64,000 nt of DNA, taken from NCBI GenBank assembly GCA_963708075.1, contig OY970194.1:1664001-1728000 (forward strand), read 5' to 3'. A model generated the notes under the pieces. It worked only from the letters and a program-made list of their open reading frames with translations. It was not told the DNA's origin and made no database searches. Shown in pieces: positions 2,836-61,088 of the stretch. The stretch's first letter is position 1, and the number at the start of each line of letters is the position of its first letter. A program made the translations under genes and the position numbers. The DNA comes from Sedimentisphaerales bacterium. Its GTDB lineage: Bacteria; Planctomycetota; Phycisphaerae; Sedimentisphaerales; Anaerobacaceae.

Positions 2836-4992
2836 TCAGAACTCGCAGACGCCGCTGATGCAGCCGCCGGCGTAGTCGGTGTCGGCCGATACGAAATCCG
2901 GCAGCTCATCATGCTGGAGCTCTTGCACTTCGCTCACGGACAGCACCTGGTCGGTTTTGGACCCGTAGCGGTAAATGGTGATGCCTTTGCACTTGAGGCG
3001 GTACGCCTCCAGATAAATCTCGCGGACGTCCTCCACCGTCGCGTCGGCGGGCAGGTTGATCGTCTTCGATACGGCGTTATCCGTGTACTTTTGAAAGGTG
3101 GCCTGAATCTCCAGGTGCTGCCGGGGGGAGACGTCGAACGCCGTAACAAAAAGCCGCTTCACATCATCCGGAATCCCTTTGATCTGCGCCAGCGACGGGT
3201 GCCTGGCCACCTCGGCCAGCAGCTCCCGGCTGTGGAACCCGCGGTCCTTCGCGACCTTCTCAAACAGCGGATTCGTCTCGAACAGCCGCGTCCCCGAAAG
3301 CACGTTGCGCACGAAACTGACGGCGAACAATGGCTCGATACCGCTGGAGCAGCCGGCGATGATGCTGATCGTGCCCGTGGGGGCGATCGTGTTCACGGTG
3401 GCGTTGCGCAGCCTGGCGATCGCCGCCGGCATAGACCGACTTCTCGAAATTCGGGAACTCCCCTCGTTGCTTCGCGAGCGACTCGGAGGCGGCAAGCGAC
3501 TCCTTGTGAAGGAACCGCATAAGTTTGGTGGCAACTGAGACGGCGTCGGCGGAATTGTACGGTATCCCGAGCCGGATGAGCAAATCCGCAAAGCCCATGA
3601 CACCGAGCCCGATCTTCCGGTTGCCCAGCGTCGCCGACTGTATGGTTTCGAGCGGATAGTTGTTGACATCGATCACATCATCGAGGAACCGCACGCCCAG
3701 GTAGATCGTCTCACGGAGCTTGTCCCAGTCCACCGCGGCCCCGCCGATCTCTCCATCGCCCCCGGCACCTTTCGTCATCTTGTCCAGATTGATCGAGGCC
3801 AGGATGCAGCTCTCGTACGGCAGCAAGGGGACCTCGCCACATGGATTGGTCGCCTCGATCCGGCCGACCTGGGGTGTCGGATTTTTCTTGTTGATCTCGT
3901 CAAGGAAAACCAGCCCGGGGTCGCCCGTTCTCCAGGCGGCGTTGACGATCAGGTCGAAGAGGGAACGCGCACCGAGCCGCCTGACGCTCTCGCCGGTGCG
4001 CGGGTTCACGAGATCGAATGGGCGATTGTCGGCAATGGCCCGCATGAATTTATCCGTCGCCCCAACAGAGAGGTTGAAGTTCCTGAACGCATCGGAGCCG
4101 ACCTTGGCCTCGATGAACTCAAGGATGTCGGGGTGATCGCAGCGGAGGATGCCCATGTTGGCGCCCTGCGCTGGCCGCCCTGGACGATGACCTCGGTGGC
4201 CTTGTCGAAAATGCCCATGAAGGAGATGGGGCCGGAGGCGCGTCCCTTGGTGGACCCGACGATATCGCCCCTTGGCCGCAGGCGCGAGAAGCTGAATCCG
4301 GTGCCGCCGCCGGTCTGGTGGATGCGCGCCATATCGGCCAGAGTCTGAAAAATGCCCTCGACCGAGTCCTCGACGGGGAGCACGAAACACGCGGAGAGCT
4401 GGCCCAGACGCGTCCCGGCGTTCATGAGAGTCGGCGAATTCGGCATGAACTCGCGGTTGCGCATCATGCGGTAGAACTGGTCCTCGATGTCATCCACACT
4501 CTCATCCGACTCGTAATCGGCCTCAGCCCGGGCCACGTGGTGAGCCACCCTGCGGAACAACTCGCTGGGCGTCTCCACGATCCGCCGGTTCTCGTCCTTG
4601 AGCAGGTACCGCCTCTTGAGCACCTCCACCGTGTTGATGGGCAGCTTGAGATCGTCCTTGAGTCCGAGCGCCGACTTGGCGAAACGTTCCTGGGATTTCC
4701 GCTCGCGATAGAGGATATAGCTCTTGGCGATGTTGCTGTATCCCTCGCTCATCAAGGCCGCCTCGACAACATCCTGGATGTTCTCGATGCCGGGCGTCTT
4801 ACCCCCGTATTCCTCCGCGAGTTTCTCCACAACAGCCTCGGTCACCCGCCGGGCGACGACCTGAACGCGGCTCTCGTCATGCAGGACTTCCAGCGCCGCC
4901 CGTCCGATGGCGCGTTCAATCTTGGAGGCATCGAAACCGACGATGGAGCCGTCCCGCTTTCTGACTTTCTCCGGCACTGTTTGCGTCGCCAT
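2836..4992 (-). CDS. nrdJ: Class II (adenosylcobalamin) ribonucleotide reductase with N-terminal ATP cone; split by two apparent frameshifts (~4170, ~3420)
   Basis: ATP cone '[12 protein letters not shown]', '[12 protein letters not shown]', 'LSACFVL', 'GGGTGF', 'GANMG', 'ATNPCGE', 'RKIGLGVMG', 'TIAPTG', 'AVSKTIN' and C-terminal Cys pair, spread over three overlapping frames. Confidence 0.9.
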
Positions 4993-7873: not shown

Positions 7874-8572
7874 CTACAAAGCTCGCCGGCGTCGCAGCCA
7901 GCCGACCATCGCGGTTCCCATGCCAGCAAGTAGAATGGCACCGGGGGCGGGGGTCGGTGTAATCCTTCCCCAGAGCATGGCGGTGTTCGCGCCGTCCTCC
8001 GGTGACTGGAACTGCGATTCCAGGGTTGAAGGGCTAGCCCCAAACCCAAGGAGTTCCAGGGAGTACTTGTCCCCGCCGAGCATAAATGTCTGATGCGGCA
8101 TGGAATTCGGGAAGTAGATGAAGTCATCCGTTCCCAGTCCTGGCGTCTCGTTGATGTGGAACGTGAAGGTGGACGTCCCGCTGCCACTCGGACTGGAAAA
8201 GGTCATGGTGACCGCCAGATCCACCGCAGTGGCGTTTGACCCCGTCTGGATCTCATAGTTGAAGTGCGCTAACTCGCCGACCACAAAGGCGACGTCCTCT
8301 GTGACACTCAGCGGCCCAACCGAGCCACCGACAGCACCGGTGAAACCCAAGCCGCTCTGATTCGCCTGGTGATACGGCGTGCCCCAGCGGACCTGGTCCT
8401 GCAGCGTATTTCCATACGCTACTCCCACGCCGTCATTGTAGACAATGTCCACACCACCCACGGGATTGGACCATGCGCCATCGACAGCGCTGAGGGTCAG
8501 CGATCCCATGGCGGGACTGGCCGCCACGACCCACACAACAAACATCAGTGTCAACACTAGTAGCTTCTTCAT
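7874..8572 (-). CDS. PEP-CTERM-type (PAP variant) surface protein with THxN/choice-of-anchor K-like domain
   Basis: Signal peptide 'MKKLLVLTLMFVVWVVAASPAMG'; 'QVRWGTP...SGLGF', 'GELAHFNYEI', 'INETP'; tail 'TPAPGAILLAGMGTAMVGWLRRRRAL'. Confidence 0.88.
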   Translation of the reverse strand: MKKLLVLTLMFVVWVVAASPAMGSLTLSAVDGAWSNPVGGVDIVYNDGVGVAYGNTLQDQVRWGTPYHQANQSGLGFTGAVGGSVGPLSVTEDVAFVVGELAHFNYEIQTGSNATAVDLAVTMTFSSPSGSGTSTFTFHINETPGLGTDDFIYFPNSMPHQTFMLGGDKYSLELLGFGASPSTLESQFQSPEDGANTAMLWGRITPTPAPGAILLAGMGTAMVGWLRRRRAL

Positions 8573-8637
8573 CTTTTGTCTCCTTAAGCCTGCGGGTCCC
8601 TATTCGGAGTGAGCGTGAATTCGCCGCTGAACGGGTA

Positions 8638-8653
8638 TGCAGGACACGTGCCA
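8638..8653 (-). promoter_or_regulatory. Putative sigma54 (-24/-12) promoter
   Basis: Minus strand TGGCAC-GTGTC-CTGCA with exact GG-N10-GC spacing, 65 bp upstream of the PEP-CTERM start. Confidence 0.6.
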
Positions 8654-8753
8654 GCCGTGCGGGTGACCGTCAGGGTGGGCACAGCAAAGTCCGGGGCAGT
8701 CACAAGCAGCACCCAATAGGAAAACCGTTTCATCTGTTTCTCGTTGTTGATGC

Positions 8754-8836
8754 AGCAGATTTCGCAAATCCATTTGGAAAAGAGGGGCTTTTCGAGCCTC
8801 GGGGGACCGCGGGCCAGAGCAGATTGTGGAAATCCA
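8754..8836. repeat. Two 19-bp direct repeats with internal dyad (GATT-N5-AATC), candidate activator sites
   Basis: AGCAGATTTCGCAAATCCA (8754-8772) and AGCAGATTGTGGAAATCCA (8818-8836): 16/19 identical, 64 bp period. Confidence 0.6.
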
Positions 8837-9263
8837 GCTTCCTCTCGCAAAGCATTTCGTCGATCGCGATCAGTAGGGATGTCGCGACAAACCCCGTACT
8901 GAGACGCGGCAGGATGGGTCAATACATAGAGCTCGCCCGTCGAGGCGGCCAATTGCCTACTGCGGGTGCGCACAGGCAGCGCAGATACGATGCCTGTCAG
9001 CAGCCCACTACGCCATCCATGCGTAAGCGGGAACAGGGTTCCCCTGCCGAGCCACATCTCCCGTCTCCTTACGGTCGGATCCCCTCACTACCTTTTTGTT
9101 GTGCGGGCAAGCGCCCTGTGTCACGATCCGGGCGACTCCTCCAGCCAACATGGGATCGCCTGCATCGTACACTGCGTGTCCCCCGCGTCAAGGGAAATCC
9201 AAAAAATGCAGGGAATTGTGGTTGCGCAGGGACCCCAGGAAATCCTGCAGCATCCTTCCAGGG

Positions 9264-9298
9264 AAAATAAAACGGGGCAGACTCGGAAGTCTGCCCCG
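9264..9298 (-). terminator. Rho-independent terminator
   Basis: Perfect 11-bp stem CGGGGCAGACT/AGTCTGCCCCG followed by TTTTATTTT on the minus strand, about 40 bp after stop 9336. Confidence 0.8.
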
Positions 9299-9335
9299 CG
9301 TGTGTATACGTGACTTCGTTAGACAGCCACCTGTA

Positions 9336-9977
9336 CTACAGGCTCTCACGTCTCCTGAGCCAACCGATCAGACTGGTGCCAATGGCAGCCAGAACGATCG
9401 CACCCGGAGCCGGAACAACCGGTGCCGGTGGCGGCGGTGGCGGAGGCGGATCCTGCTCGTACCAGTCCCACCTGTAGGTGACACTGAGCTGCGACCAACC
9501 CACAATCACGCCCGAACCTGTCTCACCGGTATCGATGTTGATGTCCACATCCAACATTCCATCCTCAAGACTGGCCAGAATGGCCGACAGATTGAATGTC
9601 GTCGTGGTCCAGGTGTCGGGAAGTCCCACCGGCGGCTTGACCAGATTGCCTAACACAGTGCCGTCAGCAATGATCTGGTCTGTCTCATCCGCTTGCCAGG
9701 CGTACACGGTCAGTGTAGCCGACTCGAGGGTGCGCACACCGGAGGCATCCGGAGACGGATCGCCAAGATACGTCACCGAATGATCCCAATCCCAATCCTG
9801 GTAGAAATACCGGTAACTGGTAGAGTTGTGACTAGGGCTGGCGCCGGTCGCCAGGAAATAGTTGCCATCAGTACCGAAGTTGGCAGTATCTCCTACCGTG
9901 TCCGGCAGCGTCATGGGGCCGGCTTGCGCCACCCCCATGGCCAGTAACACACTGGTCACCAACGCTATTCTTCGCAT
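9336..9977 (-). CDS. PEP-CTERM-type (PAP variant) surface protein with polyproline linker
   Basis: GGAGGA RBS; signal peptide 'MRRIALVTSVLLAMGVAQA'; Asp/Thr-rich domain; 'PPPPPPPPAPVVPAPGAIVLAAIGTSLIGWLRRRESL'. Confidence 0.88.
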   Translation of the reverse strand: MRRIALVTSVLLAMGVAQAGPMTLPDTVGDTANFGTDGNYFLATGASPSHNSTSYRYFYQDWDWDHSVTYLGDPSPDASGVRTLESATLTVYAWQADETDQIIADGTVLGNLVKPPVGLPDTWTTTTFNLSAILASLEDGMLDVDINIDTGETGSGVIVGWSQLSVTYRWDWYEQDPPPPPPPPAPVVPAPGAIVLAAIGTSLIGWLRRRESL

Positions 9978-10804
9978 AACTCCTCCATACTTCTCTTCCC
10001 CAGATCCGGCCATTCCGTCCACTGTTCGCGGCCTCGGCTGCACGGGAATCAACGTCTCCCGTCATCACCGAACTCCTTCGAACGCGCGTCGTTTCCGAAA
10101 CGATCCGAATCCAAGTCCGAGACTCGATACACGGTCAAGCTTTCAAAGGCTCCGTCCCCCCCGCCGCAGAGACGACCGTATCTCTCAGAACGACGAAGGT
10201 GTTTCGACACTCCTTTTTTCAAGGCGTTGACATGTAATGAACTGTTCCACTCACTAACGCCCAGACTCCGTGGTGGACGATCACATGACACTTCCACTTT
10301 CTCGACGAAAGGGCCTTGCGCACTGGCCCTTGCCCAGAGAGCGCATGTGTTGGTGTCGCAGCGGCGCTACGGAGGCCCACGTGGCACCTGCGCAGCCACC
10401 GGCTGAGACACGGGAGGTAAGTGTGGGTTTGAATGCCAGGTCATACTCAGGAATAAACGCCGCAGTGCGTTTTGGAGGCTTTGATATACGCGAGACAGGT
10501 TGGGAAGGACCCCGCCGGCCGGCAGGCAGAGCAGGTCGAAGGCTGCAGTAGAGGCATCACTGCCCAGAGGACGAGGGCCGGCACCGCCTTCCGCAGAAAC
10601 GGAAAGGGCCCGTCCATCACACCACATTCTCCCGCTGTTTTCCAGCACCGCTCCTCCTCCTAATCCAATGCCCGAACGCATATCATACCGATGACGATCC
10701 CGCGCTCGCGCACAATCAGGAATTCTTCCTTCTCCTGATACGCTTTCCCTCGAAATAAGTAGCGGTGGGAGCCCTCCTCCAGTGAGGCACCAACTATACA
10801 ATGC

Positions 10805-10834
10805 ATTCTATACTTGGTATCCGCCTGCCGTCAA
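10805..10834 (-). promoter_or_regulatory. Putative sigma70 promoter
   Basis: Minus strand TTGACG-N18-TAGAAT in an AT-richer intergenic region. Confidence 0.45.
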
Positions 10835-11161
10835 GGACTTTCTCGGAAAATGGCAGAAATAGTCCACCCACCGTGGTCTTCAGAATGCATCGCGACCTAG
10901 CGCCGGGGATACTGCACGGCGTGTTGATACTTCATGTTGTTATACCATAACACTGGTACTATTTATGTGGTAGACATGGAGTGTGACGATACTGATTGGT
11001 CACAAGGGGAATGCGTAGGGTGCGGCAGGATGTGACAGAGGAGACTGGCCCCCGCCTCTACGGCCGATGGAAGGTGGGCGAGCAGATGGCGGGAGCGATG
11101 AAGTGTCCAAGAGGAACCGTTGAGCCTGGTCCGGCGCGGGCGAGGCCATCAGGCTGTACCG

Positions 11162-11470
11162 CTATTTCGCCTCGCCAAGGAACTTCAGAAGCATGTTGAT
11201 CTTGTCTTTGACTTTGATTTTGCGGTAGATATTGCGGATATGGACCTGCACCGTGGCAGGTTGGATATGGAGGGACTCAGCGATGCGGCTGTTGCGCAGC
11301 CCCTGGCACGCGAGGTCAGCGATCTGCACCTCCCGTGGGGTCAACTCGTACCGGCTCCGGAGAAAGGACCATTGGCGCTCGCTGAGCACGGAGAGGGCGC
11401 GCCCCTGCCCCGGCCGGTCCGTGACCGGGCGGTCCGGTTCTCGGGCATCGAGCGACCGGTCCATCATCAT
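11162..11470 (-). CDS. Stand-alone LuxR/GerE-type HTH transcriptional regulator
   Basis: 'LTPREVQIADLACQGLRNSRIAESLHIQPATVQVHIRNIYRKI'. No receiver or sensor domain; start overlaps the TPR gene stop. Confidence 0.88.
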   Translation of the reverse strand: MMMDRSLDAREPDRPVTDRPGQGRALSVLSERQWSFLRSRYELTPREVQIADLACQGLRNSRIAESLHIQPATVQVHIRNIYRKIKVKDKINMLLKFLGEAK

Positions 11471-14400
11471 TGGCCTTTCAGCAGTTGATCAAGGAGAAGC
11501 CTGGCCTCAGCCTGGTCCTCGGGCGGCAAGTGTCTTGCCGGATCCATCGCCTCCTTGAGGGCCTGCTGAGCCTGCGTGGTGCGCCTCATCTTGGCATACG
11601 CGCGGGCCAGATGGAAATACGCGCTGGCCAGTGGCCCGGCATTTCCCGGATACAGTTCGACGCACCGGGCCAAGTCCTCCGCCGCCTTTTCGGATTGCCC
11701 CAGCCGGTAGAGGATGACTCCTCGTGTCTCCAAGACGTCCACGTAGTGCGGCGCAATCTTCAGTCCCTTATCCGCCAGTTCCAGCGCTTCCTTGTACTGC
11801 CCGTTCTGCTCACAAAGGGCCCAGGCTAGATTGTTCAAGGCAACAATGTTGTTCGGGTCCAGTTCAAGAACCTTCTGGTTCAGCGCGACGGCTTCCGCTG
11901 TGCGTCCCATCTGCTGCACCAGCATGGCGAGGGAGGTCACGACGGGGATAGACTTCGGTGTGCGCTGCGCGGCCGCCGTCAGGAGGCTCTCGGCCATTTT
12001 GATCGCCTCCGGACTGCCCTGCGCTGAGAGCGAGCGGGCCACAGTCGAGACAACGAAGCCGTCCTCAGGATGCTTCGCGACCCAGTTCGCCACCTGCTCG
12101 GCTACTTCCGTCCAGCGTTCATCCGAGGCCAGCAGGGCCGCCAGCGTCGCCGGAGGGATCGGATTGTTGGGCTCGGCCTTCATACGCGCTTCGAGAATGG
12201 ATCGGCCCTCGGTCCTGTTCCCGCTCCTGTACAGAGCCCTGGCCAGACGTCTCTCGATCTGGACGTCATTCGGATACTGTTCCAGCAGGGTCTGCAACGT
12301 GGGCGCCGCCAGTATCGGGGAGCGAGCTTCTTCCGCGTCGGCCTTGAGTAACAGCAGATCCCTGTCCCGCTCATTGTGGCTCAAGCCGCTCAAAGCCATA
12401 TCCAAGGCTTTTCCGGGTTGCCCTTGTTCTAACTCCAATCTGCCCAGCAGATGCCACGCCTGCGATAGTTGCGGCCGAGATACCGTGATTTCCCGCAACA
12501 GCCGTTGTCCCTGAGTGATAGCCGGCCTCGTGCCCCTGCTCAGCAGGAACTGCGATTTCAGGAGCTTGAGCCCGGGATCGTTCGAATCGGCGGCACAGGC
12601 CTTATCGAGCGTCGCCTCGGCCTCCTGCATCAGCCTGGGACTGCCGGAAGCCAGGCACAGTGGAATCGCGTCATTCAGTACGGACGGGTTCCTCGCGGAC
12701 AGGTCCAACGCCTTGCGAACGTCCTGGATGGCCTCGTCCCTGCGACCGATGGCTTGGTGGAATCTGGCCCGTGCCACCCGGGTGCCGGCGTTGTCCGGGG
12801 CTTTGGCGACGGCCTGCGCGAAATCCGCCGACGCCTTCTCGTATTCTTGCAGGCCGACATAGGTCCGCGCGCGCAGCAGATACGCAGCCGCGTGGTCGGT
12901 CTTCTGTACCATTTCATCGCACAGCCGCACGGCGGCCTGCGCGTTCCCACGAAGCATGTGCAACTGGACCGTGGCTTGAGCAATGGAAATAGACTGGGAC
13001 ACCTTGGCCTCAAGCCCCTTGAGAATGACCTCTGCGTCATCGAGCTGGCCCTGAGCCATGTAGATGGTTGCCAGAGCCAGTCTGGAGTCCACGTCGTTCG
13101 GCTCCTTCCGAACAAGCTGCTGCAGGGTACCCGAGGCGGAATCAAAATCGCCGCGGCGCGCCTGGTCCCGCCATCGCATCCTCTGGCCCTGCAATTCAAG
13201 CTTCTCGAGATCCGGATGGTAAAGCTGCCGCTCGCCGGCCTGTTTGAGAATTCGCTCCGCTTCCTCCTGCTCGCCGTTCTTTTGGAGGGCGGCGACCGTC
13301 TGCATGATGATGACGATGTTATTGGGTGCGCGCCTGAGCGCTTCCCGGTATGCCGACAAAGCCAACTGCTTCTGGTTGGCCCTGTCATGCGCCGCCGCGA
13401 GAAGCAACCGGCTCGCCTGGTCGTTTGGATTGGCCAGCAGGTTCTCCTGCAGGAGCGCGGCGGTTTGCGTGTAGTAACGGGCTCGGAAGACATTCGGATC
13501 CGCAACCATAGCAGGATTCACCCAGACTCTAGCCTGCTCGTACCGCCATTGCCAGCCGGCCTGCCCCTCCAATGACTTGATCCGGTCTACCAGCGTCTGA
13601 GCCTGCTGAGCGTTCGCGACGACAGCAGGACATGTTAGAAGCTGGCGTTTGACCTGAATATCGTTTGGGAATTGTACGGCCATATCCGTGAGCCACGGGT
13701 GCAGATCACTCTCCCTCGACCAGAACCGATACAGGGAAGCCAGAAGCAGTCCAAGGTCACGCCGGGCCTCAGGCGACTGCATCCGTGCGATCGCCTGCTT
13801 GATCACGGACTCGCATTGCTGCGGATCTTTCTGCCGGTTGAGCAGCAGGGCAAGAGTCTGCACGGGCTCGATCACTTGAGGGAACTGCTCCGTGGCCCCG
13901 CGCCAGAGCCGTGGCCTCCGCAACCTTGTCCTGGCCGGCCAAAACCTCAACTTCCATAAGGGTCGCCCGGAGGTCCGAAGGGTTCTTGCTGCGCATCTCC
14001 TCCAGGAGCTTGACGGCCTCAGCAGCTTTGCCCTGTCTGGTCATGGCCTGGGCCAGAAGGAACTTGACCTGGACAGATCCCCCCATCGCCTGATCGACCT
14101 GTGCCAATTGCTTCTCGATCTCCTGCCAGGCCTGCTCGCGATTTGGCGTCGATCCATCGGCTTCCGCCAGCAGGAATATCCGACTCTGCAGCTCCAGCAA
14201 TATCGCTTCCGCGTGGCCGGGGATCAGTCGCTGCACTTCGCGCGCTTGCTCCAAAGCGCCGGCCCAGTTTCTTGCGCGAATCATCAGCCGGGCCAGGGTC
14301 AGCCGGCCCTCGACGCTCGTGCGATCCTCCGTGACCAGGGTTTGCAGTTGAACGTTCGCGGACTGGAGGTCACCCAGTTGGGCGTACGTGGACGCGAGCA

Positions 14401-15616
14401 TGATGCGCACCGGCACCTTGGCGCCAAGCCCGCCCGCGTACCAGTATTCTTTCAATCCCTGCCCCACGACGTCCCGCCAACGAGCGACAGCCTCCCAGAG
14501 GTCGCCTCTGCTGGCAGCCACGAGGCCGTCAAGAAAGGTCAGCAGTTCCGGCTGCAAACCTTTCTGCCGCATCCGGGACACGCATTCCTGAGCCTTCTCC
14601 GGCTGATTGGCGGCAGCGAAGAGCTCGGTAGCCGTTGGCAGAAAATCCCAGGGGTATGCGGCCAGTTCCTTCAGTCCGTTTTCCGCTACGGTTGCCTTCT
14701 CCTGTGCCGAGCCGCCGGACATCACGGCGGCCGCCCAGCTCTGCCACAGCGATACTCTTCCGGGCATCTTGGCCTGTAGAACGGTGAGATGCTCTTTGGC
14801 CCTCTCAGACGCCTGTATCCTGAGCAGCTCTTGCACCAGGCGCAGATGGACGTCCACATCGTCAAGACTGCATTTCGCCGCCTGTTCGAAGTCCGCTATC
14901 GCCTGATCTCGGTGCCGGAGCCGGCTGTGGAACGCACCACGAGCGATATAGGCCATCGCGGACTGTGGATTTGCGGCCACCGCCTTGTCAAACCAGTCCG
15001 CCGCCGGCGTGTTCACATCTGTGGGACGCTCCTCCAAGGCCAGCAATCCCAGCATCTCATAAGCCGGGACAGCGTCAGGATGATCTTTGATCAAGTCGAT
15101 AAGCACCTTGGCGGTCTCTGCATATTTCCGCTGCCCGTAGAGGGCACGCGCCAACATCCGCCGCAGTTCCGGATCATCCCTGCTTTGCAGGTATTTGGAC
15201 GCGACGGCTGCCGCCTCGTCCGGACGCGAATAGGGCCTTTCGAGGAGGAGCTCGACAAGACACTTCGCCGCTTCCACATTGCCCACATCCACACGCAGGA
15301 TGGATTGATAGGTCGCGACCGCACGCTCGACGTGCCCCTGAGTACGCGGTCTTCGCTTGCGCTGAGCATCGGCGTACTTCAGCATTGCCGGGAGATCGTC
15401 ATTGCGGACTTCCACGTACCGGCCGAGCTGTTCCGCCGCTTCATCCCAATTCTCCTGGGCATACGCTTGCTCGCCGCGGGGCAGCGCACGCTCCGCACGA
15501 GTGCTTTTCTGCCAGCGGTGCAACGAGAAGACAGCCCCTGCAAAAACCGTAATCGCCACGACAAGAACGATCGCCAGCGTCCAGTTGAAGTACCGTCTTG
15601 CCATTCGTTTGTCCAT
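11467..15616 (-). CDS. Giant membrane-anchored TPR protein (PrsT-like, about 1380 aa), apparent frameshift ~13895
   Basis: N-terminal TM 'WTLAIVLVVAITVFAGAVF'; TPR helices in both ORFs; C-terminal 'ALNNLAW...LETRGVILY' motif; break at a G run. Confidence 0.85.
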
Positions 15617-15717
15617 CCTTTCTGATCAGAGCATAAGGCTCGGGATCGACTGCGGCATCCGGGTCGGCTTGCGCACAGCCGTGTTCGGCGCCCGTCGCGA
15701 AGATTTCTGTGTCGCCG

Positions 15718-17477
15718 CTAGAACTGGTTGATGAAATTGGCGGTCATTCTCTTGAACGTTCGCCAACAGATCCACAGATCCAGGCGCCATGAGAGATCAC
15801 GGACGTACCGGGTATCGTAGTGGATCCACTCCTGAAAGTCCTTCATGGGCTCCCGCGTTCTGCAGATTTGCCACAGGCCGGTGATGCCGGGGCGGACAGA
15901 AAGCCGCGCGTCACGCCACCAGGGGCACAGTGTATTCTCAGACTCCGGCGAGGGACGCGGACCCACCACGCTCATGTCGCCTCTCAGCACATTGTAGAAC
16001 TGCGGTATCTCATCGAGGTAGGTCTCCCGCAAAAATCGGCCCACCGTCGTGATGCGGGGATCATCCGCCATTTTGAACTGCGGACCATCCACCTCACTGA
16101 TGAATCGCAGCTTGTCCTGCAGCTTGTCGGCCCCGACTCGCATGGTTCGGAATTTGACGCAACTGAAAGGTCGGCCATGGAGTCCCTGTCGTCTGTCCCG
16201 GAAGAGCATCGGTCCGGGCGAGCTGAGCTTGATGGCCAGGGCAATGAACGGGATGATCGGCGCAAAGAGAACAAGAACGACGACAGCCGCGATCACGTCC
16301 ACCACGCGTTTGAGGCATCTGGCGTATGAGAATCGGGACCAACTGCGAAAGGCGGCGGTGTCCTGCGAGCGAGTGCCTGCGGAGCAGCGATACATCGTGC
16401 TGCCCGGAGAGCGTCCACCTGCGGGCGACCCGGATGGGGCGACCAGGGAATGCCTGACCACCTGGTCGCGGGCAACCTCGCCGTGACGTCCCACGATGGA
16501 GGCATCGACCACAGCGCCGGTCCGGACTGTGCTGTGATCGCAGAGAATGCTGGGCCCTATGATCACAGCGTCAGACTCCACGCATACCTGTTCGCCGAGC
16601 AACACCGGGCCGACAAATCGCGACTGCGGCGAGATGCCGCCGTTGCCGCCCGATGAAGCCACACCCTGCTCCCCCGCCACCGCCTGGTGCGCCGGGCAAC
16701 AGGACGTGTCGGCCAGCGCGATTGCCGCGAGGGACAATAATCCTTCCTCCGTCCCCAGATCGACGGACGATCCGGCCACGGCGATCGATTTCACGTGCGA
16801 CCCGCGCGCCGGAGCTTCTCAACGGCAGCCTGGAATTCCGCAGGCAATCCCCCGTCCAGGATCGTGCGGGCCGCCTCGCCTCTCACGTAGAGATGGTGAG
16901 GCCAATCCGCAGGCATGGGGATCGGCTCCATCGAATCGCAATACAACCGCCGATAGCCGACGAGCTGTCCCTGCTGTGTCAGGCGGACCCGCTCGCGGTA
17001 GGCGGAAAGGTCGGGGTCAGCCGTTACCGCAACAGCATCGGCGCCCGCGTCGGCAAGTCCCTGCTCGAGCCGCTGGCGGCTCATCCGTGACACGAAACGC
17101 CCGTTGGAGATCACCAGCCAGGAATTCCCGGCAATACTCCGGAGCATTTCGGGGTCAATAACGACGGTGTCCGTGTAGATGACTTTTTGTCCGAGATTCT
17201 CGGGGAACACCGTCTGCCACTCGTGAGGAACCGCCCAAATCGCGCGTTGTGCCGGAACGTTGTCTGCGCAGTGCGCGGGGCGGCCGAGAACATCGAGAAC
17301 GATACGGCCCAGAGGGGCCGCGGACAAGGCGTACTCGAGGAAATCCGGCTCACGCCCCGGTCCGCCGGGTCTGCCCCGCCGCAGGACAACCAGCCTGACG
17401 ATCGGGTCGGACTGCACGGCAAGCGTCACATCGCTGGCGGCCACGGCACTACGCTTCTTGATCACCCGCGTCGACAT
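15718..17477 (-). CDS. Priming sugar transferase (WcaJ/WbaP C-terminal domain) fused to a degenerate nucleotidyltransferase + LbH module; apparent frameshift ~16795
   Basis: 'KRVVDV', 'KFRTM', 'DDPRITTVGRFLR..YLDEIPQ', 'GDMSVVGPRP', 'RPGITGLWQ'. The upstream ORF (16791-17477) and the start of the downstream ORF together form an NTP-transferase-like fold followed by hexapeptide repeats. Confidence 0.85.
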
Positions 17478-19773
17478 CCGGTTCTCATCCCTGCGTCCGT
17501 CTCTTCGCCGTGCGTGAGAAGCAACATCCTCTTGGCCCTGCGGCCCTTGTACTTCGGCTGCGACCCTGCGGGCCGGTAACTGTAGCCGGTGCGGTACAAG
17601 CTGTGATATACCGGCACGTTGCTCAGCACGGCTCCAAGCACGTGTGCACGGATCCGATCAAACCGCTCCCGGGCCTCTTTCAGCTCAGGACCCGTCGTCT
17701 GACCGGCGAAACTGACGAGTACTACCGCATCCATCAGCTTCGCCCACACCAGGGCATCTGGAAATGACAGCGCCGGCGGCGTATCCACGATCACATGATC
17801 GTACTGCCGACTCAGTTTCTCGATCTGTTCCGCTGCCATCGTCGAGGTCAGCAGCTCATAGGTATCGGCCAGATTCCTGGGGTTGGCCACGAGCACGTGC
17901 AAGCCGCTCGACGCCACCATATGAATCGCATCATTGGGATTGCCCCCCAGCAGAACATCCTGCAGCCCGGTGGAGCCGTTGAGGATGCCCAGCATGTAGC
18001 CGATATCGGGCTTGCGAAGATCGCCGTCGATCAGGAGCACCTTCTTGCCCGATTTGGCGAGACTCGTCGCCAGGTTCACGGCGAACGTGGTCTTGCCCTC
18101 CCGCATCCCGGCGCTGCTGACAGCCAGTTTCTTGGGCATGCCCCCGGCGGTCAGCAGAGACAGGTTCGTCCGAATCGTCTGGTAGTCGCTGGCCAGGTGT
18201 TCGGCGAACAGGGCCGCTTTGATCGTGCGGGAACTCGTCGTGGTGCCGATGACGGGCAGGTCAAGCTGCCGGGTGACATCATCGGGGGACTGCAGGGTCT
18301 TGTCCATCCGATCCCGCAGGATCGCCAGACCGAAACCACAGCCCAGCGCCAGGAAAACCACCACAGCCGAATACTTGGCCCGCTTGTCTTCGATGCTGGT
18401 GATTTCCGGCTGGCCGATCGGCTGAATCCGAGGCGCCCGCTGCATCTCCATCTGGATGTCGCTGATCCGGCGCAGGATCTGATCGTGAAGCTGCTGATTC
18501 GTGGCCAGCGAAAACTCTATGTCCTGCAGGTTCACGCTCGCTTTTCCGACCTCGCGCGTCGTCGTCTCCTGCGATTTCAAGGCCTCACGCAGATTGGTTT
18601 CATACAGCTGGATCTGGTCGCGCTCGGCTTTGAGCGCCGCCATTCTCATCTTGGTCGTTGACGCGGTACGATCGGCGACCTGCGTCTCGAATTCCTGCGT
18701 CAGTTCCTGTTCTTTCGCCTTGAGGCTCTCTTCAAAACTCGTCAGCAACTGCTGTTGGCGGGCAAGCTCAGGATTCTCAGCGCCAGCCTCTGCCTGGCGA
18801 TGAGGATGTCCCGCCTGAGCTGCACGATATTCGTGGTCAGCTCCTTCACCATCGAATCGGCGGCGATGTACTCCTTGCGGGCGGCGATCAACTGCTCCGG
18901 AGGGGTGTTGGTGTCGCTGGCCTGCTCGATCGCAGCAATGGTCGCACCCAGACCGATTCGGCGGGATTCCAGCCGGGCCGCCTCCGTCCACAACGTCGTC
19001 TGACGCTGCATTTCCATCTGTTGCCGGCTGTCCAACTGCGTGGTCCCGTATGGCTGAGAAAGCGTGCTGATCTCGGTGTGCTGCTGGGCGATCTTCGTCG
19101 CCAGGGCTTTCTCCTGGTCGTCGAGTCTGCGAAGCGTCACGTCCGTCTGTCTGGCGGAATCGAGGCCATACTTGCTCTGATAATTGCTGATGAACGCGTC
19201 AATGATCCGTCTCGCCTCGCCATCGTTTCTGCTTCTTACGGTCACACTGATGATCTCCGTTCGGCGCAGCGGAGCGGCCGTAATCGTCCCTTTCGTGATG
19301 GCCCTCCTCAGAACGTCGACCGGCTCCCTCGTACGCGGAGCGATCCTGAACAGCCTCGCGATTCGGTCGACAGGATCATTTGCATCTTCCCGGAAGAACG
19401 ACAGGTTCATCGGCTGGAGCTCGTCCGCCACTCCCTGCAGCACGGCTGAGCTCAGGATCTTGGCCGCCTGGGTGTTGAGGTAGCTGTCGTAATCAGAGAT
19501 CTCGCCCCGATCCGGCTCTCCTGTGAGGATACGCGGCAGGACAGGGGCCACGTGGATGGCGCCCGTCACAACGTAACGAGGCTTGATCAGCAGCCAGATC
19601 GCCGGCAGCACCAACACGGCGATCAACACGGAGACAAGAGCCACGATGTACCAGCGGCGGCGCAGAGCATCCAGGACGCTCGGCGGCATCGGTTGCTCGG
19701 GCTGTACCGGCGAATCGTAGATCACAGGCTTCTGCTCGATCACCTGATCTAAATATTTTTCCAGATTGTTCAT
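17462..19773 (-). CDS. wzc: Wzc/GumC-type polysaccharide co-polymerase with BY-kinase domain; apparent frameshift ~18780
   Basis: Two TMs flanking a coiled coil; Walker A 'SAGMREGKTT', 'LIDGDLRKP', 'VIVDTPP', Tyr-containing tail. Confidence 0.85.
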
Positions 19774-19790
19774 AGGACCATTCTCCCGTT

Positions 19791-21791
19791 TTAAGAGTCC
19801 ACCGCGTGCTGCGTTCTTCGTCGCACAATCACCGCGGGTTTCACCTCCGCCTGAGGGCTGATCAACCGTCCGAGGAGCCAGAACTCACCGACAACGAGGG
19901 CCAGGGCCAGCGGCATCATGGCGTACCCCCCAAAGTCGTGGAACAGCTTCTCAACGTTGTCCCCTTCTATGATCGTGAAAGCCACGGCTGTTATGGCCAG
20001 CCGCAGCGTATTGCAGAACAGGGCGATGGGCAGACTGGAAAGCAGGATGATCAGCTTTTCCCACCAGGTCCGCTGGACAAGCAGAACCACCAGGGCACTG
20101 ATCACCAGGAACGCCGTGACCATGCGCAGGCCATTGCACGCTTCGGCCACCGCAACATTCGTCTGTCCGATCCCGATGACATTTCCATCCCGCAAAACGT
20201 CATAGCCTGCCAACTCCAGGCAAAACACCGCTGAGTCCGTCGCCCAGCCCTGGAGAGGCAGACTGATCTGCGCCTGGACCCGATGCGGCCACGGCAGCAT
20301 CAAACACAGGAACACCAGGACGGTGGCCACCCTTCGCAGGGCTCTCCATCCGAACAAAAGAAGAACTAATGCGATTACGGACACAATGATGGAGACCCTC
20401 TCTGCGGAGCCATACATCCAGAACAGGCCAAAGAGCCTCATGGCCTGGGAAAGCACGAAAATCCCCACGCCCCAGAAGAGCATGGGTCTGACCGGCAGTG
20501 AAACCAGGTCACGCCGGCGCGTCCACAGAACGTAGAGGGCCAGGAACGGGACCAACAACCCGGCGGAGTACTCGTCGCTCCTCTGCCACTCCTTGGCCAG
20601 ATCCTGCAAAACAGGCCAGTACGACCATAGCAACGCAACGACCAGGCCGCCGCATCCCAAGATGCCGGCAAGCTGCTTTTGCGAAAGCGGTACCCGGGCA
20701 GGCGGCGCCCCCATGTTGCCACCGGGATGCCCACCGGCAATCTCGCGTTTGCCCATAGGCGCGGTCCTCCTGGCGACAGGTCTGAGAATCGCGGTCTTTT
20801 GTCCCGCCGAGACCGTCTGCTCCGCGACGATGCTTCCATCGGAAACCACAGCGTCGCGTGCTATGACAGACCCGCGAACCTCGCAGCCGGCGCCCACCTT
20901 GCAGCCATTCCACAGGACGCTTTCGACGATCACACTGTCCTCGCCGACGCGGGCTCCGCTGTCGAGGACGGCCGGCCCGACCACCACAGCTCCCCGGGCC
21001 AGATACGTGCCCTCGGAGACCGCTACAGGGCCGTAAATCCGCGCCCCGGGATCGATGCCCTCGCCGCCACTCACCGGCGCCAGCCGTTTACTCGAGCACT
21101 CGCAGAGAGTGTACCCGTCGGCGACAACTCGCTCACTTTCGAGATACAGGGATACCGCATGGAGGTACCCTGCCCGGTCGTGAAAGTTCCCTACGTCCTG
21201 GGGCAATACCACGGGCTTGATGACCCCTCCCGCCCGTAAGATGGCAGGAATCAGTCCTTCCTTGATATCACTATACCCGCTGGGAGCGACAAGTTTGAGC
21301 ACATGCGGACGACAAAGATAAATCTCCGCCGAAGTCCCATAATGCGACTCGCCCGATGGGTCGGGGTTGAATGCTACCGTCAAATCCGCCTCGTTGCGGG
21401 TGTGAGCTTCAATCAGATCGCGGATCGCAGGTGGGCGGACCATACTGCCCGAGAATACCAAGATCAAGTCACCTGGATCCGACGCCACGGCATCTCGCAG
21501 GCACCCGGCCGTGCCGCTGCTCAGTTGCTCGATCACCAGTCTCACGGCGATCCGTCGATCCGTCTCAATGGCCCCGACGGAACTGGATACCGTGCTGTCA
21601 CAACACAGGGCTATGTCCCTGACTCCCTCGTTGGCGAGATGGCGCAGCAGTCGCTCGACGGCAGGCTTGCCGGCAATCGGCCACAGTGCGACAGGCAGGC
21701 GAGCTGCGAGCGGACAGCGCCCGAAGTCCTGTCTGCCGACAAGGACTACGGTCCGGATGCGAGCCTCGTCAAATGCCGCTTTCTCAGTCAT
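19791..21791 (-). CDS. Exosortase fused C-terminally to a degenerate nucleotidyltransferase + LbH module
   Basis: Exosortase motifs 'W..SDEYSAGLLVP', 'VAEACNGLR', 'NTLR', 'FHDFGG' (Cys-Arg-His). The N-terminal ~330 aa resemble mannose-1-phosphate guanylyltransferase with hexapeptide repeats. One uninterrupted frame. Confidence 0.9.
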   Translation of the reverse strand: MTEKAAFDEARIRTVVLVGRQDFGRCPLAARLPVALWPIAGKPAVERLLRHLANEGVRDIALCCDSTVSSSVGAIETDRRIAVRLVIEQLSSGTAGCLRDAVASDPGDLILVFSGSMVRPPAIRDLIEAHTRNEADLTVAFNPDPSGESHYGTSAEIYLCRPHVLKLVAPSGYSDIKEGLIPAILRAGGVIKPVVLPQDVGNFHDRAGYLHAVSLYLESERVVADGYTLCECSSKRLAPVSGGEGIDPGARIYGPVAVSEGTYLARGAVVVGPAVLDSGARVGEDSVIVESVLWNGCKVGAGCEVRGSVIARDAVVSDGSIVAEQTVSAGQKTAILRPVARRTAPMGKREIAGGHPGGNMGAPPARVPLSQKQLAGILGCGGLVVALLWSYWPVLQDLAKEWQRSDEYSAGLLVPFLALYVLWTRRRDLVSLPVRPMLFWGVGIFVLSQAMRLFGLFWMYGSAERVSIIVSVIALVLLLFGWRALRRVATVLVFLCLMLPWPHRVQAQISLPLQGWATDSAVFCLELAGYDVLRDGNVIGIGQTNVAVAEACNGLRMVTAFLVISALVVLLVQRTWWEKLIILLSSLPIALFCNTLRLAITAVAFTIIEGDNVEKLFHDFGGYAMMPLALALVVGEFWLLGRLISPQAEVKPAVIVRRRTQHAVDS

Positions 21792-22328: not shown

Positions 22329-23646
22329 TCACCAACAGATCCCCTCGTACGTGCTCGTGTCACTTCGACGATCCATGATACGGGCCAAATCCACAATGGT
22401 CTTCCCGTCTTTGACTTGTCGCACGATCCCTTGGAAGGCCGGCGTCTTGTTGCCGACGACGATGACCCGGCCATGATCCAGGACCCTGCCGGGATCCTCC
22501 GTCAGCAACGGAGCGATGTGGGGGATGCGATTGAGGATGTAATCCCGATTCGTGCCCATCAGGTTCGCCAGACGTACGTCTTCATCGAAGATGAGTACAT
22601 CATAACCTTTACCCAGCAGACGCTCGATGAGCTCGACCATGGGGCTCTCCCGGAGGTCATCTGTCCCCGGCTTGAAACTCAGCCCCAGGACGCCGATCTT
22701 GCGATGGCCGAAGCTGGTGATCAGGCGGAACGCCTCGCCGACCTGCCGCTCATTGCTCGCGAGAATCGAGTTCAGCACGGGCAGTTCCAGGTCAAGCGTT
22801 CGTGCTTTGTAGGTCAGGGCACGCACATCCTTCGGCAGACAGGAGCCGCCGAAGGCAAAACCCGGCTTGAGATAGCACGCGGACAGGTTCAACTTCGTAT
22901 CCCGGCAGAAGATATCCATGACCTCATGGCTGTCCAGCCCCACGGCCTTGCACAGGTTGCCGATCTCGTTCGCAAAGCACACCTTCAAGGCATGCCAGAC
23001 GTTGTCCACGTACTTGACCATCTCGGCTGTTTCCACGTTCGTGCGGACCATCGGCGCATCGAGTCGCTCGTACAGGTTGGCGACGAGGTCGCCGCTGCGG
23101 GTATCCATCTGGCCAATGACGACCTTCGGCGGATGATCGAAGTCCTGAACGGCGCTGCCCTCCCGCAAAAACTCGGGATTGTTGCAGAGAACCGAAGCCG
23201 GTTCCCGCTCGCTTGCCCGAGCACTCCTCCAGGATCGGCAGGATGATGCTCCGCATCGATCCCGGCAGTACCGTGCTGCGACAGACCACGACGTGAAAAT
23301 CGCTCTTGTTCTGCAGGGCCCGGCCGATCTGCTCCGACACCCGGCGCACGTACTTCAAATCGAGATTGCCGTTGAGCTGGCTCGGCGTGCCCACGCAGAT
23401 CATGGAGATCTCCGTCGCCGCCACGGCCTCGTCAGCGTCCGACGTGGCCCGCAAGGTCCCCTTCCGCACGGCCTGCTCCACGAGTTCGGGAGTACCTTTT
23501 TCCATAATGGGCGACCGGCTGGCATTGATGAGGTCCACCTTGGCCGCGTTCGTGTCCACGCCGATGACAGTATGGCCATCCCGCGCCAGGCAGCCGGCCG
23601 TCACCACCCCCACGTAACCCAATCCGAAAATGCTGATTCTGCTCAT
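22329..23646 (-). CDS. algD: UDP-glucose/GDP-mannose 6-dehydrogenase (AlgD-like); apparent frameshift ~23190
   Basis: 'ISIFGLGYVG', 'MICVGTPS', '(N)PEFLREGSA', 'PGFAFGGSCLPKDVRALTY', 'LSFKPGTDDLRESP'. Confidence 0.88.
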
Positions 23647-28328: not shown

Positions 28329-29277
28329 CTATCGCCTCTGAAACCGTCGGATTCGCTCGTCCACGATGACGCCGCGGCGAATGATAGTCGCAGGGTCGAG
28401 CGTTGCATCCGTGTCGCCCATGATGAGCTTATCGAGGAAACGCGCCACCTCCCTGCTGATCGACTGGGACACCGAGCGGAAGAAGAGCGTAGGGGTATGA
28501 TCGACGGCATAGTGCAGAATGCCTTTGTGCCAGTAGACCGGCTCCGTGATTGTCGTGGCCCGGCTGCTCTCGATGCCCATGTGCGGATCGCAACTGATGT
28601 CCACGATCATCGAGCCCGGCTTCATCTTCTCGAGATCCTCATCGTACACGAGGTGGTCATCGCGGAATACGTCCCACAGGACACCGTTGACAATCACGTT
28701 GTACCGCCCGATCTCGCGGCGCAGCAGATGACTGGTCTTTCGGTCGTAGACGATGGTCTCACACCCATATCGCTCAAGGGCGCAGAGCGCCGCGGGCGAC
28801 ATTTCCCCGCCCGATGATGGCGATATCGCATTCGTAGGGCAAACGCCCCCACTGCAGCAAGGCGTGCGCGATGGCGGCCTCGCCGGAAATCTCATTATTG
28901 CGCCAGAAGGTGTGCCTCCCATCCGAGAACATGTCCTCCCAGGCAATGGCCGTCATGTGATTCGCGATCAGCTTGTCCGTCATCTCGCGTCCCTGCACGG
29001 CATGGATCCAGCCGAACAGCGTGGTGCCCTCGCGAAAGTAGGGATCACCAATCATCGGCTTGGGCGAACAGACGATGGGACAACTGCACACGACGTCCCG
29101 GGGCGCCACACGGGCCCCGGCCCGTCGGTAGGCTTCATCGCTGTAGCCGTGCTCCAGGCCATACCCCTGCTCAAAAACCAGCATATCCACGTGCTCCACT
29201 TGCGGAACATCCGTGGGCAGCATCGCGATACGCTTCTCATTCTCTTTTGCTGTTATCGGGAAACCAATCTCTTGCAT
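28329..29277 (-). CDS. N5-(carboxyethyl)ornithine synthase-like enzyme (AlaDH/PNT family); apparent frameshift ~28785
   Basis: AGGAGA RBS; 'IGFPITAKENEKR', 'EQGYG', 'FGWIHAVQ', 'AWEDMFSDGRHTFWRNNE', 'IGRGNVARG', then 'IVNGVLWD', 'VDISCD', 'YAVDHTP' in the next frame. Confidence 0.8.
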
Positions 29278-29307
29278 AAATCTCCTACGAACCTGAACCA
29301 ACCACCC

Positions 29308-61011: not shown

Positions 61012-61088
61012 GTCTTTCTCCGATCAGCGCCCGCGGATCATCCCGGCTCCGCGGATACGCAGTGTAACATACTCTTCACCACCCTGTG

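Follow-up and report, generated by a model that had tools for sequence, protein, structure and literature searches.

In the eukaryotic translation factor eIF2B, two dead nucleotidyltransferase (NTase) paralogues that each carry a left-handed beta-helix (LbH), gamma and epsilon, are joined as a heterodimer in one complex. In bacteria, the NTase paralogues GlgD and GalF, with little or no activity of their own, act on active, soluble pyrophosphorylase partners. The NTase+LbH fold is also that of GMPPA/GMPPB and KONJAC/VTC1, where the inactive subunit (GMPPA or KONJAC) heterodimerises via its LbH and regulates (PMC9168903), and GMPPA is reported to bind GDP-mannose. Here, we describe a gene run at positions 7874-21791, minus strand, of a stretch of 64,000 nucleotides (the window) from a Sedimentisphaerales bacterium (contig OY970194.1, positions 1,664,001 to 1,728,000). 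Two modules of the same fold are fused there to membrane enzymes, module A to an exosortase and module B to a priming monotopic phosphoglycosyl transferase (PGT). Whereas GMPPA and KONJAC have an active paralogue as partner, neither A nor B has the catalytic loop, and regulation would act on the fused membrane PGT; eIF2B is eukaryotic and has neither PGT nor exosortase. We consider it somewhat likely that A and B form a cytoplasmic pseudo-nucleotidyltransferase heterodimer on the priming PGT, which gates the initiation of a Wzx/Wzy-type glycan. The gated product would be exopolysaccharide (EPS) and probably a glycoprotein glycan. The elements concerned are:

19791..21791, minus strand: module A-exosortase fusion, intact open reading frame (ORF) of 666 aa (domain matches, full-length relatives)
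20802..21770, minus strand: module A, pseudo-nucleotidyltransferase plus LbH, aa 8-330 (profile and structure matches)
21678..21737, minus strand: remodelled signature loop of module A, G19-P38 (GxxDFGR replaces GGxGTR; Val replaces the PK lysine)
21258..21278, minus strand: GYxDIKE signature of module A with G172, D175, K177 and E178 (K aligned to VTC1 Lys196)
19872..20639, minus strand: exosortase domain, aa 385-640, with Cys552, Arg597 and His618 (Exosortase_EpsH)
15718..17477, minus strand: module B-monotopic PGT fusion (PF02397, relatives)
16944..16994, minus strand: module B hairpin with conserved Glu and Arg (docks onto module A in the predicted complex)
15952..16299, minus strand: PGT core motifs, namely the D-x12-P re-entrant helix, Asp-Glu dyad and PRP motif

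The 666-aa fusion has named relatives in Sedimentisphaerales, at 70% identity, and in Anaerobaca lacustris, at 57%. Pfam finds in it a weak NTP_transferase match (aa 27-152, E 3e-4), LbH_EIF2B (250-327, E 2e-9) and Exosortase_EpsH (385-640, E 1e-59). Module B has no NTP_transferase match in Pfam, and a profile-profile comparison relates it to A at 99.3% over 220 columns. The AlphaFold model of A (pLDDT, the predicted local distance difference score, 84.4) matches NTase+LbH proteins in Foldseek (E 4e-14, TM 0.63-0.71). The model of B, from a same-genus copy at locus L023 (pLDDT 80.6), aligns end to end with such proteins (E 6e-10) and with human GMPPA at Z 16.6 and 5.4 root-mean-square deviation over 283 aligned residues. 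Among solved structures, A is best related to tlr0611 (8x7s), GDP-mannose pyrophosphorylases and eIF2B epsilon/gamma, the last of which is also among its top phmmer matches. Hydropathy places no membrane segment within either module and, because no hydrophobic segment precedes aa 377 of the fusion, A is by inference cytoplasmic.

Paired A/B alignments were built from 96 of 123 loci, 32 with fused and 64 with free A; the other 27 had no whole partner in the DNA retrieved. GxG[TSE]R and EKP are found in 0/96 A and 0/96 B, and the PK pattern in 1/96 A and 0/96 B. The A copy of the window carries Ser in place of the first metal Asp and has no second metal Asp. The original prediction that both enzymes carry an N-terminal NTase+LbH module without catalytic residues is thus borne out, and the alignments establish A and B, at the level of sequence, as NTase+LbH pseudoenzymes without NTP-binding loop or EKP. 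Family members are labelled in databases as exosortase, sugar transferase, or NDP-sugar (nucleoside diphosphate sugar) synthase or pyrophosphorylase; the last two labels are probable misannotations because the catalytic loop is missing. The best sequence and structure matches of A/B are tlr0611, annotated in PDB 8x7s as a UTP-glucose-1-phosphate uridylyltransferase and presumably of the CugP type, and the GMPP/phosphomannomutase fusions. These retain GxGTR, PK and EKP, whereas A and B do not, and the likeness would indicate ancestry rather than ligand. A search of the genome with the A profile retrieved no intact NTase+LbH paralogue of the module A clade; other NTases are present.

To see what A has lost and kept, we compared it with VTC1, whose ligand residues are given in PMC9168903 (Active Site section). 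Missing from A are the pyrophosphate loop (Thr12, Arg13, Lys23), about 21 hairpin residues bearing Tyr145, Gly146 and Glu162, and Trp217 and Asp219; the equivalents of Gly85 and Lys196 are kept. The latter belongs to a G[YF]xD[IL]KE signature (DxKE in what follows) that occurs in 95/96 A and 267/269 database homologues and in 0/96 B. The pocket residues G86, G89, G165, D168 and K170 are present in 96/96 A and invariant across phyla. In fused A, a DFGR loop peculiar to these forms is conserved (about 30/32). Module B, in turn, keeps the hairpin (Arg 96/96, Glu 95/96) and only the second metal Asp; in the fused lineage, its N-terminal half is eroded. By these residues, A and B degenerated in a complementary manner: A lost the sugar-binding hairpin and kept DxKE, B the reverse.

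The PGT domain behind module B (PF02397, 207 bits) has all the core motifs, and PGT and exosortase domains both keep their catalytic residues. Its catalytic core is that of the large or bifunctional monotopic PGTs WbaP, WcaJ and EpsZ; unlike these, B-PGT lacks the four-helix bundle and the cytoplasmic domain of unknown function and scores below all large-PGT cut-offs (209 vs 411 for WcaJ, 242 vs 296 for TIGR03025). Since B-PGT has one hydrophobic segment, module B may stand in for the bundle and cytoplasmic domain of the large enzymes. Large PGTs need to dimerise, and a partner protein can activate them, with EpsW-EpsZ of Myxococcus as a precedent (PMC12802240); there the regulator is a response regulator, whereas here it would be a pseudo-NTase. 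As for a free-standing B family, the module B query retrieved two shorter relatives, both on contigs <1.5 kb, and so pointed to no such family.

The folded pair consisted of A and B of a same-genus genome (G018), each with its own 96-row alignment. The complex scored 0.69 (runs 0.69, 0.69 and 0.72) against 0.00 for the best of three controls; the pass mark is met by 116/157 solved and 2/215 mismatched pairs, counts that are rough with own alignments. Contacts common to the runs amount to at least 81%, and partner pLDDT is at least 76. The heterodimer, also part of the original prediction, is in this sense supported by the model. One contact patch joins the beta-helix of A to that of B, and these LbH-LbH contacts have the lowest error. 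In the other, the B hairpin (144-159) lies on A 132-147, the site of A's missing hairpin, and on K170/E171 of the DxKE signature (K177/E178 in the window); on the B side, the interface includes E144 and 152-159. On the B side, the interface columns are conserved above chance (0.57 vs 0.36 at random; 0/20000 sets reach it). In mechanistic terms, A and B would pack via their beta-helices, with the B hairpin predicted to fill the site of the lost A hairpin, against the invariant Lys-Glu. The pocket rebuilt in this way may bind an anionic metabolite and set PGT activity; given the ancestry of the modules, an NDP-sugar would be the most plausible ligand.

Close cousins of true partners can pass the complex mark, and covariation between the modules gave nothing clear: over the 96 pairs, the top inter-module mutual information reached z 6.9 against 5.7-6.5 in eight within-group shuffles, and the top pairs are clade-marker columns rather than the predicted contacts. 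Both points would suit a model in which there is no binding between A and B, each forms homo-oligomers or has other partners, and the predicted dimer echoes solved relatives. Yet the genes are paired almost constantly across three phyla and the interface is made of precisely the features that each paralogue alone retained, so we hold this model to be very unlikely. We give as little credence to a heterodimer that is not dead, rebuilding an active site in trans to make or turn over an NDP-sugar donor and channel it to the PGT. The invariant Lys of A at the catalytic Lys196 position, the Asp matching WxD in 30/32 fused-lineage B, the hairpin supplied in trans in the model and the NDP-sugar synthase label would fit such an enzyme. 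However, the triphosphate-binding GxGTR is absent from all 96 A, all 96 B and 41/43 of the single-chain forms described below, the EKP of the hairpin is missing in all, the Asp of B lies outside the predicted interface, and several loci (L056, L102, L159, L171) contain intact RmlA-like enzymes as well.

A pure scaffold, in which A and B dimerise without ligand and only oligomerise or position the PGT, deserves more weight, and in this order it would co-localise exosortase, Wzc and PGT. The LbH is the dimer contact in GMPPA/B and VTC1 (PMC9168903), as in the lowest-error contacts of our model; large PGTs function as dimers (PMC12802240); and most ligand residues of VTC1 (Thr12, Arg13, Lys23, Tyr145, Glu162, Asn173, Trp217 and Asp219) are without counterpart in A. 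Against it, the pocket residues of A, including the Gly85 and Lys196 equivalents, are invariant across phyla, and free A keeps Asp or Glu at the Asp111 position in 62/64 and Arg at the Lys23 position in 48/64, residues that most fused A have given up. We regard the scaffold as rather unlikely.

Forms with the module and the PGT in a single chain bear on the origin of the pair. A DxKE-type module joined to a PGT is found at L057, L174 and L175, and such forms make up 43 of the 120 matches listed (of 158), from Nitrospirota, Deltaproteobacteria, Thermodesulfobacteriota and Planctomycetota. None of the 43 has EKP, two have GxGTR and 38 have DxKE, and their hairpin is often Arg-rich; the other 77 listed matches, without PGT, are intact enzymes (EKP 77, DxKE 0). 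In trees, A, B and the single-chain forms stand apart from the active enzymes (support 100), the nearest active clade being the tlr0611-type enzymes and GMPP/phosphomannomutase fusions; A groups with B (support 98, and 96 under a mixture model), and the A and B subtrees branch alike. The pair would thus have arisen by duplication of a single-chain dead module-PGT that had both DxKE and an Arg-rich hairpin, features since divided between the copies. The deepest-branching A/B pair is that of L056 (G259), and an intact NTase+LbH enzyme like tlr0611 at L177:5647-6804 (G406, Planctomycetota) is a candidate active outgroup.

Several observations weigh against the proposed gating heterodimer and its history. 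The folded pair is that of G018, whose fusion is 55% identical, and not that of the window. On the A side, the interface columns are not conserved above chance (0.50 against 0.47 at random, a value that 27% of random sets attain). The pass of the predicted complex may reflect likeness to solved heteromers, since NTase+LbH heteromers have been solved (GMPPA/GMPPB, eIF2B gamma/epsilon, VTC1-KJC2). In the fused lineage, the putative ligand site may be weaker because the Asp111 position is mostly Ser (18/32 fused A) and the N-terminal half of B is eroded. Finally, the trees stem from quick searches over 82 sampled rows with long branches, and the approximately unbiased (AU) test does not reject a grouping of A with the single-chain forms instead of B (p 0.112), so that the duplication history is favoured, not proven.

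The gene neighbourhoods tell which enzyme A accompanies. Among 38 loci chosen by similarity to the A-exosortase fusion, the order A-exosortase, Wzc, B-PGT is kept in 34 (in two of these, genes are split by indels, and in one the PGT is split), so the two fusions do co-occur in related genomes, as the original prediction had expected. Of the exceptions, two stop before the PGT, one lacks the A end and in one, L041 (G038), A, EpsI and exosortase are encoded separately. Module A is present in 74/301 genomes of the class and 38/50 of the order (0/4 in family f8), and 34 of these 38 have it in frames of fusion length (at least 600 aa, length serving as a proxy); three genomes from other classes (L053-L055) carry the fusion too. 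A profile search of 1.84 billion representatives retrieved many free-standing A proteins of 320-430 aa. A scan for free A, for which 25 aligned free-standing members served as seed, confirmed 168 loci, and the best 80 of them were examined: 66 from Planctomycetota (Phycisphaerae), 13 from Gemmatimonadota and one from Vicinamibacteria (an Acidobacteriota bin). That 0/80 are fused follows by construction, because the seed held free-standing members only. B-PGT lies 3' of free A in 57/62 loci with at least 4.5 kb of sequence, one of the misses having B and PGT as split ORFs. The 37 loci with at least 9 kb on each side contain B-PGT in 35 cases, Wzc in 25, EpsI in six and an exosortase in four, the last count applying to about 9 kb, so that exosortases may lie farther off in those genomes. 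In Gemmatimonadota, the A and B-PGT ORFs overlap in 11/13 loci, the other two stopping at a contig edge. Free A is also found inside the order (L041, L194, L196, L197); genome G554 has the fused system plus a free A-Wzc-B-PGT run with no exosortase within 16 kb (L194). The constant partner of A is the PGT, not the exosortase. Together with the single-chain forms, the free-A pairings indicate that the conserved unit is the dead module or modules plus the PGT, and that the exosortase is an addition.

A coupling of PEP-CTERM processing to glycan initiation, the core function in the original prediction, is not supported by this distribution: outside the order, A is for the most part free beside B-PGT and away from any exosortase, and inside it A is sometimes free as well, in one case (L194) with no exosortase within 16 kb. 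In a coupled system, the A-B dimer would tie PAP-CTERM cleavage to the start of glycan synthesis or to the supply of NDP-sugar, or the other way round. The prevalence of the fusion in the order and its presence in three genomes outside the class, the origin of the passing complex from a fused pair, the cytoplasmic placement of both modules by hydropathy, the PAP-tail genes often found 3' of the operon in related loci, and a separate A that still lies directly 5' of an exosortase in L059, L060 and L196 are all compatible with it. On the other hand, besides the scarcity of exosortases near free A and their absence from L194, the two further exosortases of the genome are without module A, and the linker between A and the exosortase is unconserved and varies from 25 to 61 residues among relatives while the exosortase triad faces the periplasm (PMC1569441), which leaves no evident rigid relay. 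We consider coupling unlikely. Variable linker, periplasmic triad and free A forms point instead to tethering rather than allostery: on the gating reading, fusion of A to the neighbouring exosortase in Sedimentisphaerales would anchor A to the membrane and, if the dimer is real, hold the exosortase beside the PGT.

Some loci depart from the common arrangement. In the trees, the fused forms enclose the free A of L041, yet the AU test does not reject a monophyletic group of fused rows that leaves it out (p 0.126); either fission or repeated fusion would account for the nesting. At L196:12783-14840 (G684), A and exosortase share one frame with a single stop codon between them, which may be a fission, a pre-fusion state or a sequencing error. 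L059:2386-8859 and L060:6313-12538, from other Phycisphaerae, carry strongly diverged A/B with DxKE kept, in the order A, exosortase, EpsI, Wzc, B-PGT, TPR; since stricter profile cut-offs miss these forms, our counts understate the breadth of the family. L056:941-14529 has the order A, B-PGT, exosortase, EpsI, Wzc, TPR and an intact long-form RmlA-like enzyme. In L035, L036, L061 and L179 (family f7), B-PGT has neither a TPR nor a LuxR gene after it, and three of these loci have a PEP-tail gene close behind.

The gene run forms the end of a large polysaccharide cluster on the minus strand. Its other members are:

17462..19773, minus strand: Wzc-type chain-length regulator / tyrosine autokinase (TIGR01007, 126 bits, cut-off 108)
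11467..15616, minus strand: tetratricopeptide repeat (TPR) protein of about 1400 aa with N-terminal membrane segment (common, not constant, neighbour)
11162..11470, minus strand: stand-alone LuxR-type helix-turn-helix protein, 102 aa (variable neighbour)
9336..10052, minus strand: protein whose C-terminal sorting tail is of PAP type (translation probably starts 3' of the first codon of the ORF)
7874..8572, minus strand: Choice-of-anchor K / THxN-family PEP-CTERM protein with PAP-type tail (NF038131, 106 bits vs 30; NF038125, 88.4 vs 85)

The five co-oriented genes and two PAP-CTERM genes originally described are all found, three of the genes being split by indels. As fixed parts of a system, however, the TPR, LuxR and CTERM genes did not hold: they vary across loci, the TPR gene being next in 31/35 loci with sequence there and the LuxR and CTERM genes patchier. 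The Wzc gene appears as ORFs 18742-19773 and 17462-18991, B-PGT as 16791-17477 and 15718-16794, and the TPR gene as 13769-15616 and 11467-13950. Short-read contigs of run X1, possibly from the source sample itself (29/29 contigs aligned at 99%+ identity, depth 3-4), have extra bases at 13898 (TPR), 16808 (B-PGT) and 18779 (Wzc); two of the three sites are also seen in run X2 from a related strain. The indel sizes agree with the frame offsets at all three splits, and relatives carry whole genes as single ORFs (Wzc about 770 aa, B-PGT 510-600 aa, TPR 1400-1500 aa). For these three reasons, the splits are assembly errors, and genuine pseudogenes or programmed frameshifts are ruled out. Also split are a ribonucleotide reductase (three ORFs, 2836-4992), a UDP-glucose/GDP-mannose dehydrogenase (two ORFs, 22329-23646), whose indel at 23190 is not present in the short-read contigs, and an alanine dehydrogenase (two ORFs, 28329-29301); the assembly is indel-rich. 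A second Wzc lies at 58780-61023. Rfam has no match in the window, and promoter and terminator counts there are no higher than in shuffled sequence.

With a Cys/Arg/His exosortase in an EPS locus, a TPR gene and many CTERM targets, the locus resembles the PEP-CTERM/exosortase A system; it differs in scoring below the XrtA/XrtD cut-offs, lacking PrsK/PrsR, having PAP tails and carrying an N-terminal cytoplasmic module. The exosortase of the fusion exceeds the general model (TIGR02602, 144.7 bits vs cut-off 105.55), stays below exosortase A (TIGR03109, 147 vs 208) and exosortase D of the VPLPA type (TIGR04152, 183 vs 400, the match being limited to the exosortase half), and has Cys-x-Gly, Asn-x-x-Arg and His-x-x-x-Gly at C552, R597 and H618. 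Among 120 homologues, the strict patterns hold for Cys in 108, Arg in 120 and His in 106. All three exosortases of the genome lie above the general and below every subfamily cut-off. The proposed absence of EpsI, PrsK and PrsR stands for the window, and over the whole genome (92.8% complete and carrying indels) PrsK and PrsR stay below cut-off (PrsK at best 113 bits against 300, PrsR 392 against 502.6). The lack of EpsI is no feature of the system, since EpsI sits in several related loci (L038, L041, L056, L059, L060, L197); the genome has two EpsI-like ORFs, neither in the window. The PrsT model scores 82 and 226 against 312 on the two pieces of the TPR gene, whose whole protein has about 1400 aa. 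Both CTERM proteins of the window show a PAP motif, a hydrophobic helix and a basic tail, and a pattern search finds about 58 CTERM-like tails in the genome, 27 of PAP type (approximate counts). By adjacency, the PAP tails are candidate targets of the fusion's exosortase. The third exosortase is at G000:C1:1730830-1731894, about 3 kb past the window end. At G000:C1:2021313-2030553, seven VP[LV]P-tail genes, with a KLRK-type cluster at the end, lie behind an exosortase and an EpsI-like ORF, apparently a second, dedicated sorting class.

The claim of an undescribed system holds in part. NCBIfam and Pfam have no model for A, B or either fusion as such, and the ESM Atlas returned hypothetical or generic NTase clusters only. 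The literature searched, which did not extend to the PGT survey of O'Toole et al. 2021, gives no account of the A/B architecture and no match for the pseudoenzyme status, the A/B pair or the exosortase fusion. Within their available text, a Phycisphaerae genomics paper (PMC11266412) does not mention exosortase, PEP-CTERM or exopolysaccharide, and the epsSMASH preprint has no mention of Planctomyc-, Gemmatimonad- or nucleotidyl-. The exosortase fusions named in PMC1569441 are those to EpsI and to CAAX-protease domains. Monotopic PGTs are described as carrying additional catalytic or regulatory domains (PMC10186338, PMC12802240), and the bare NTase-hexapeptide-PGT architecture may already appear in O'Toole et al. 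2021.

How the initiation of Wzx/Wzy glycans is controlled post-translationally is incompletely understood (PMC12802240), and A/B provides a small, soluble two-protein test case, present in several phyla and with named residues. Why exosortases are found in EPS loci has been an open question since the system was proposed. A farther-reaching reading, which we consider rather unlikely, is that a principle like that of eIF2B gamma/epsilon would operate here, with a composite NDP-sugar pocket formed in trans by the two dead modules and, in Sedimentisphaerales, exosortase and PGT joined in one inner-membrane complex, so that the same metabolite would switch surface-protein release and glycan initiation. 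If the dimer is true, a natural fusion in one order puts an exosortase and a PGT in one complex.

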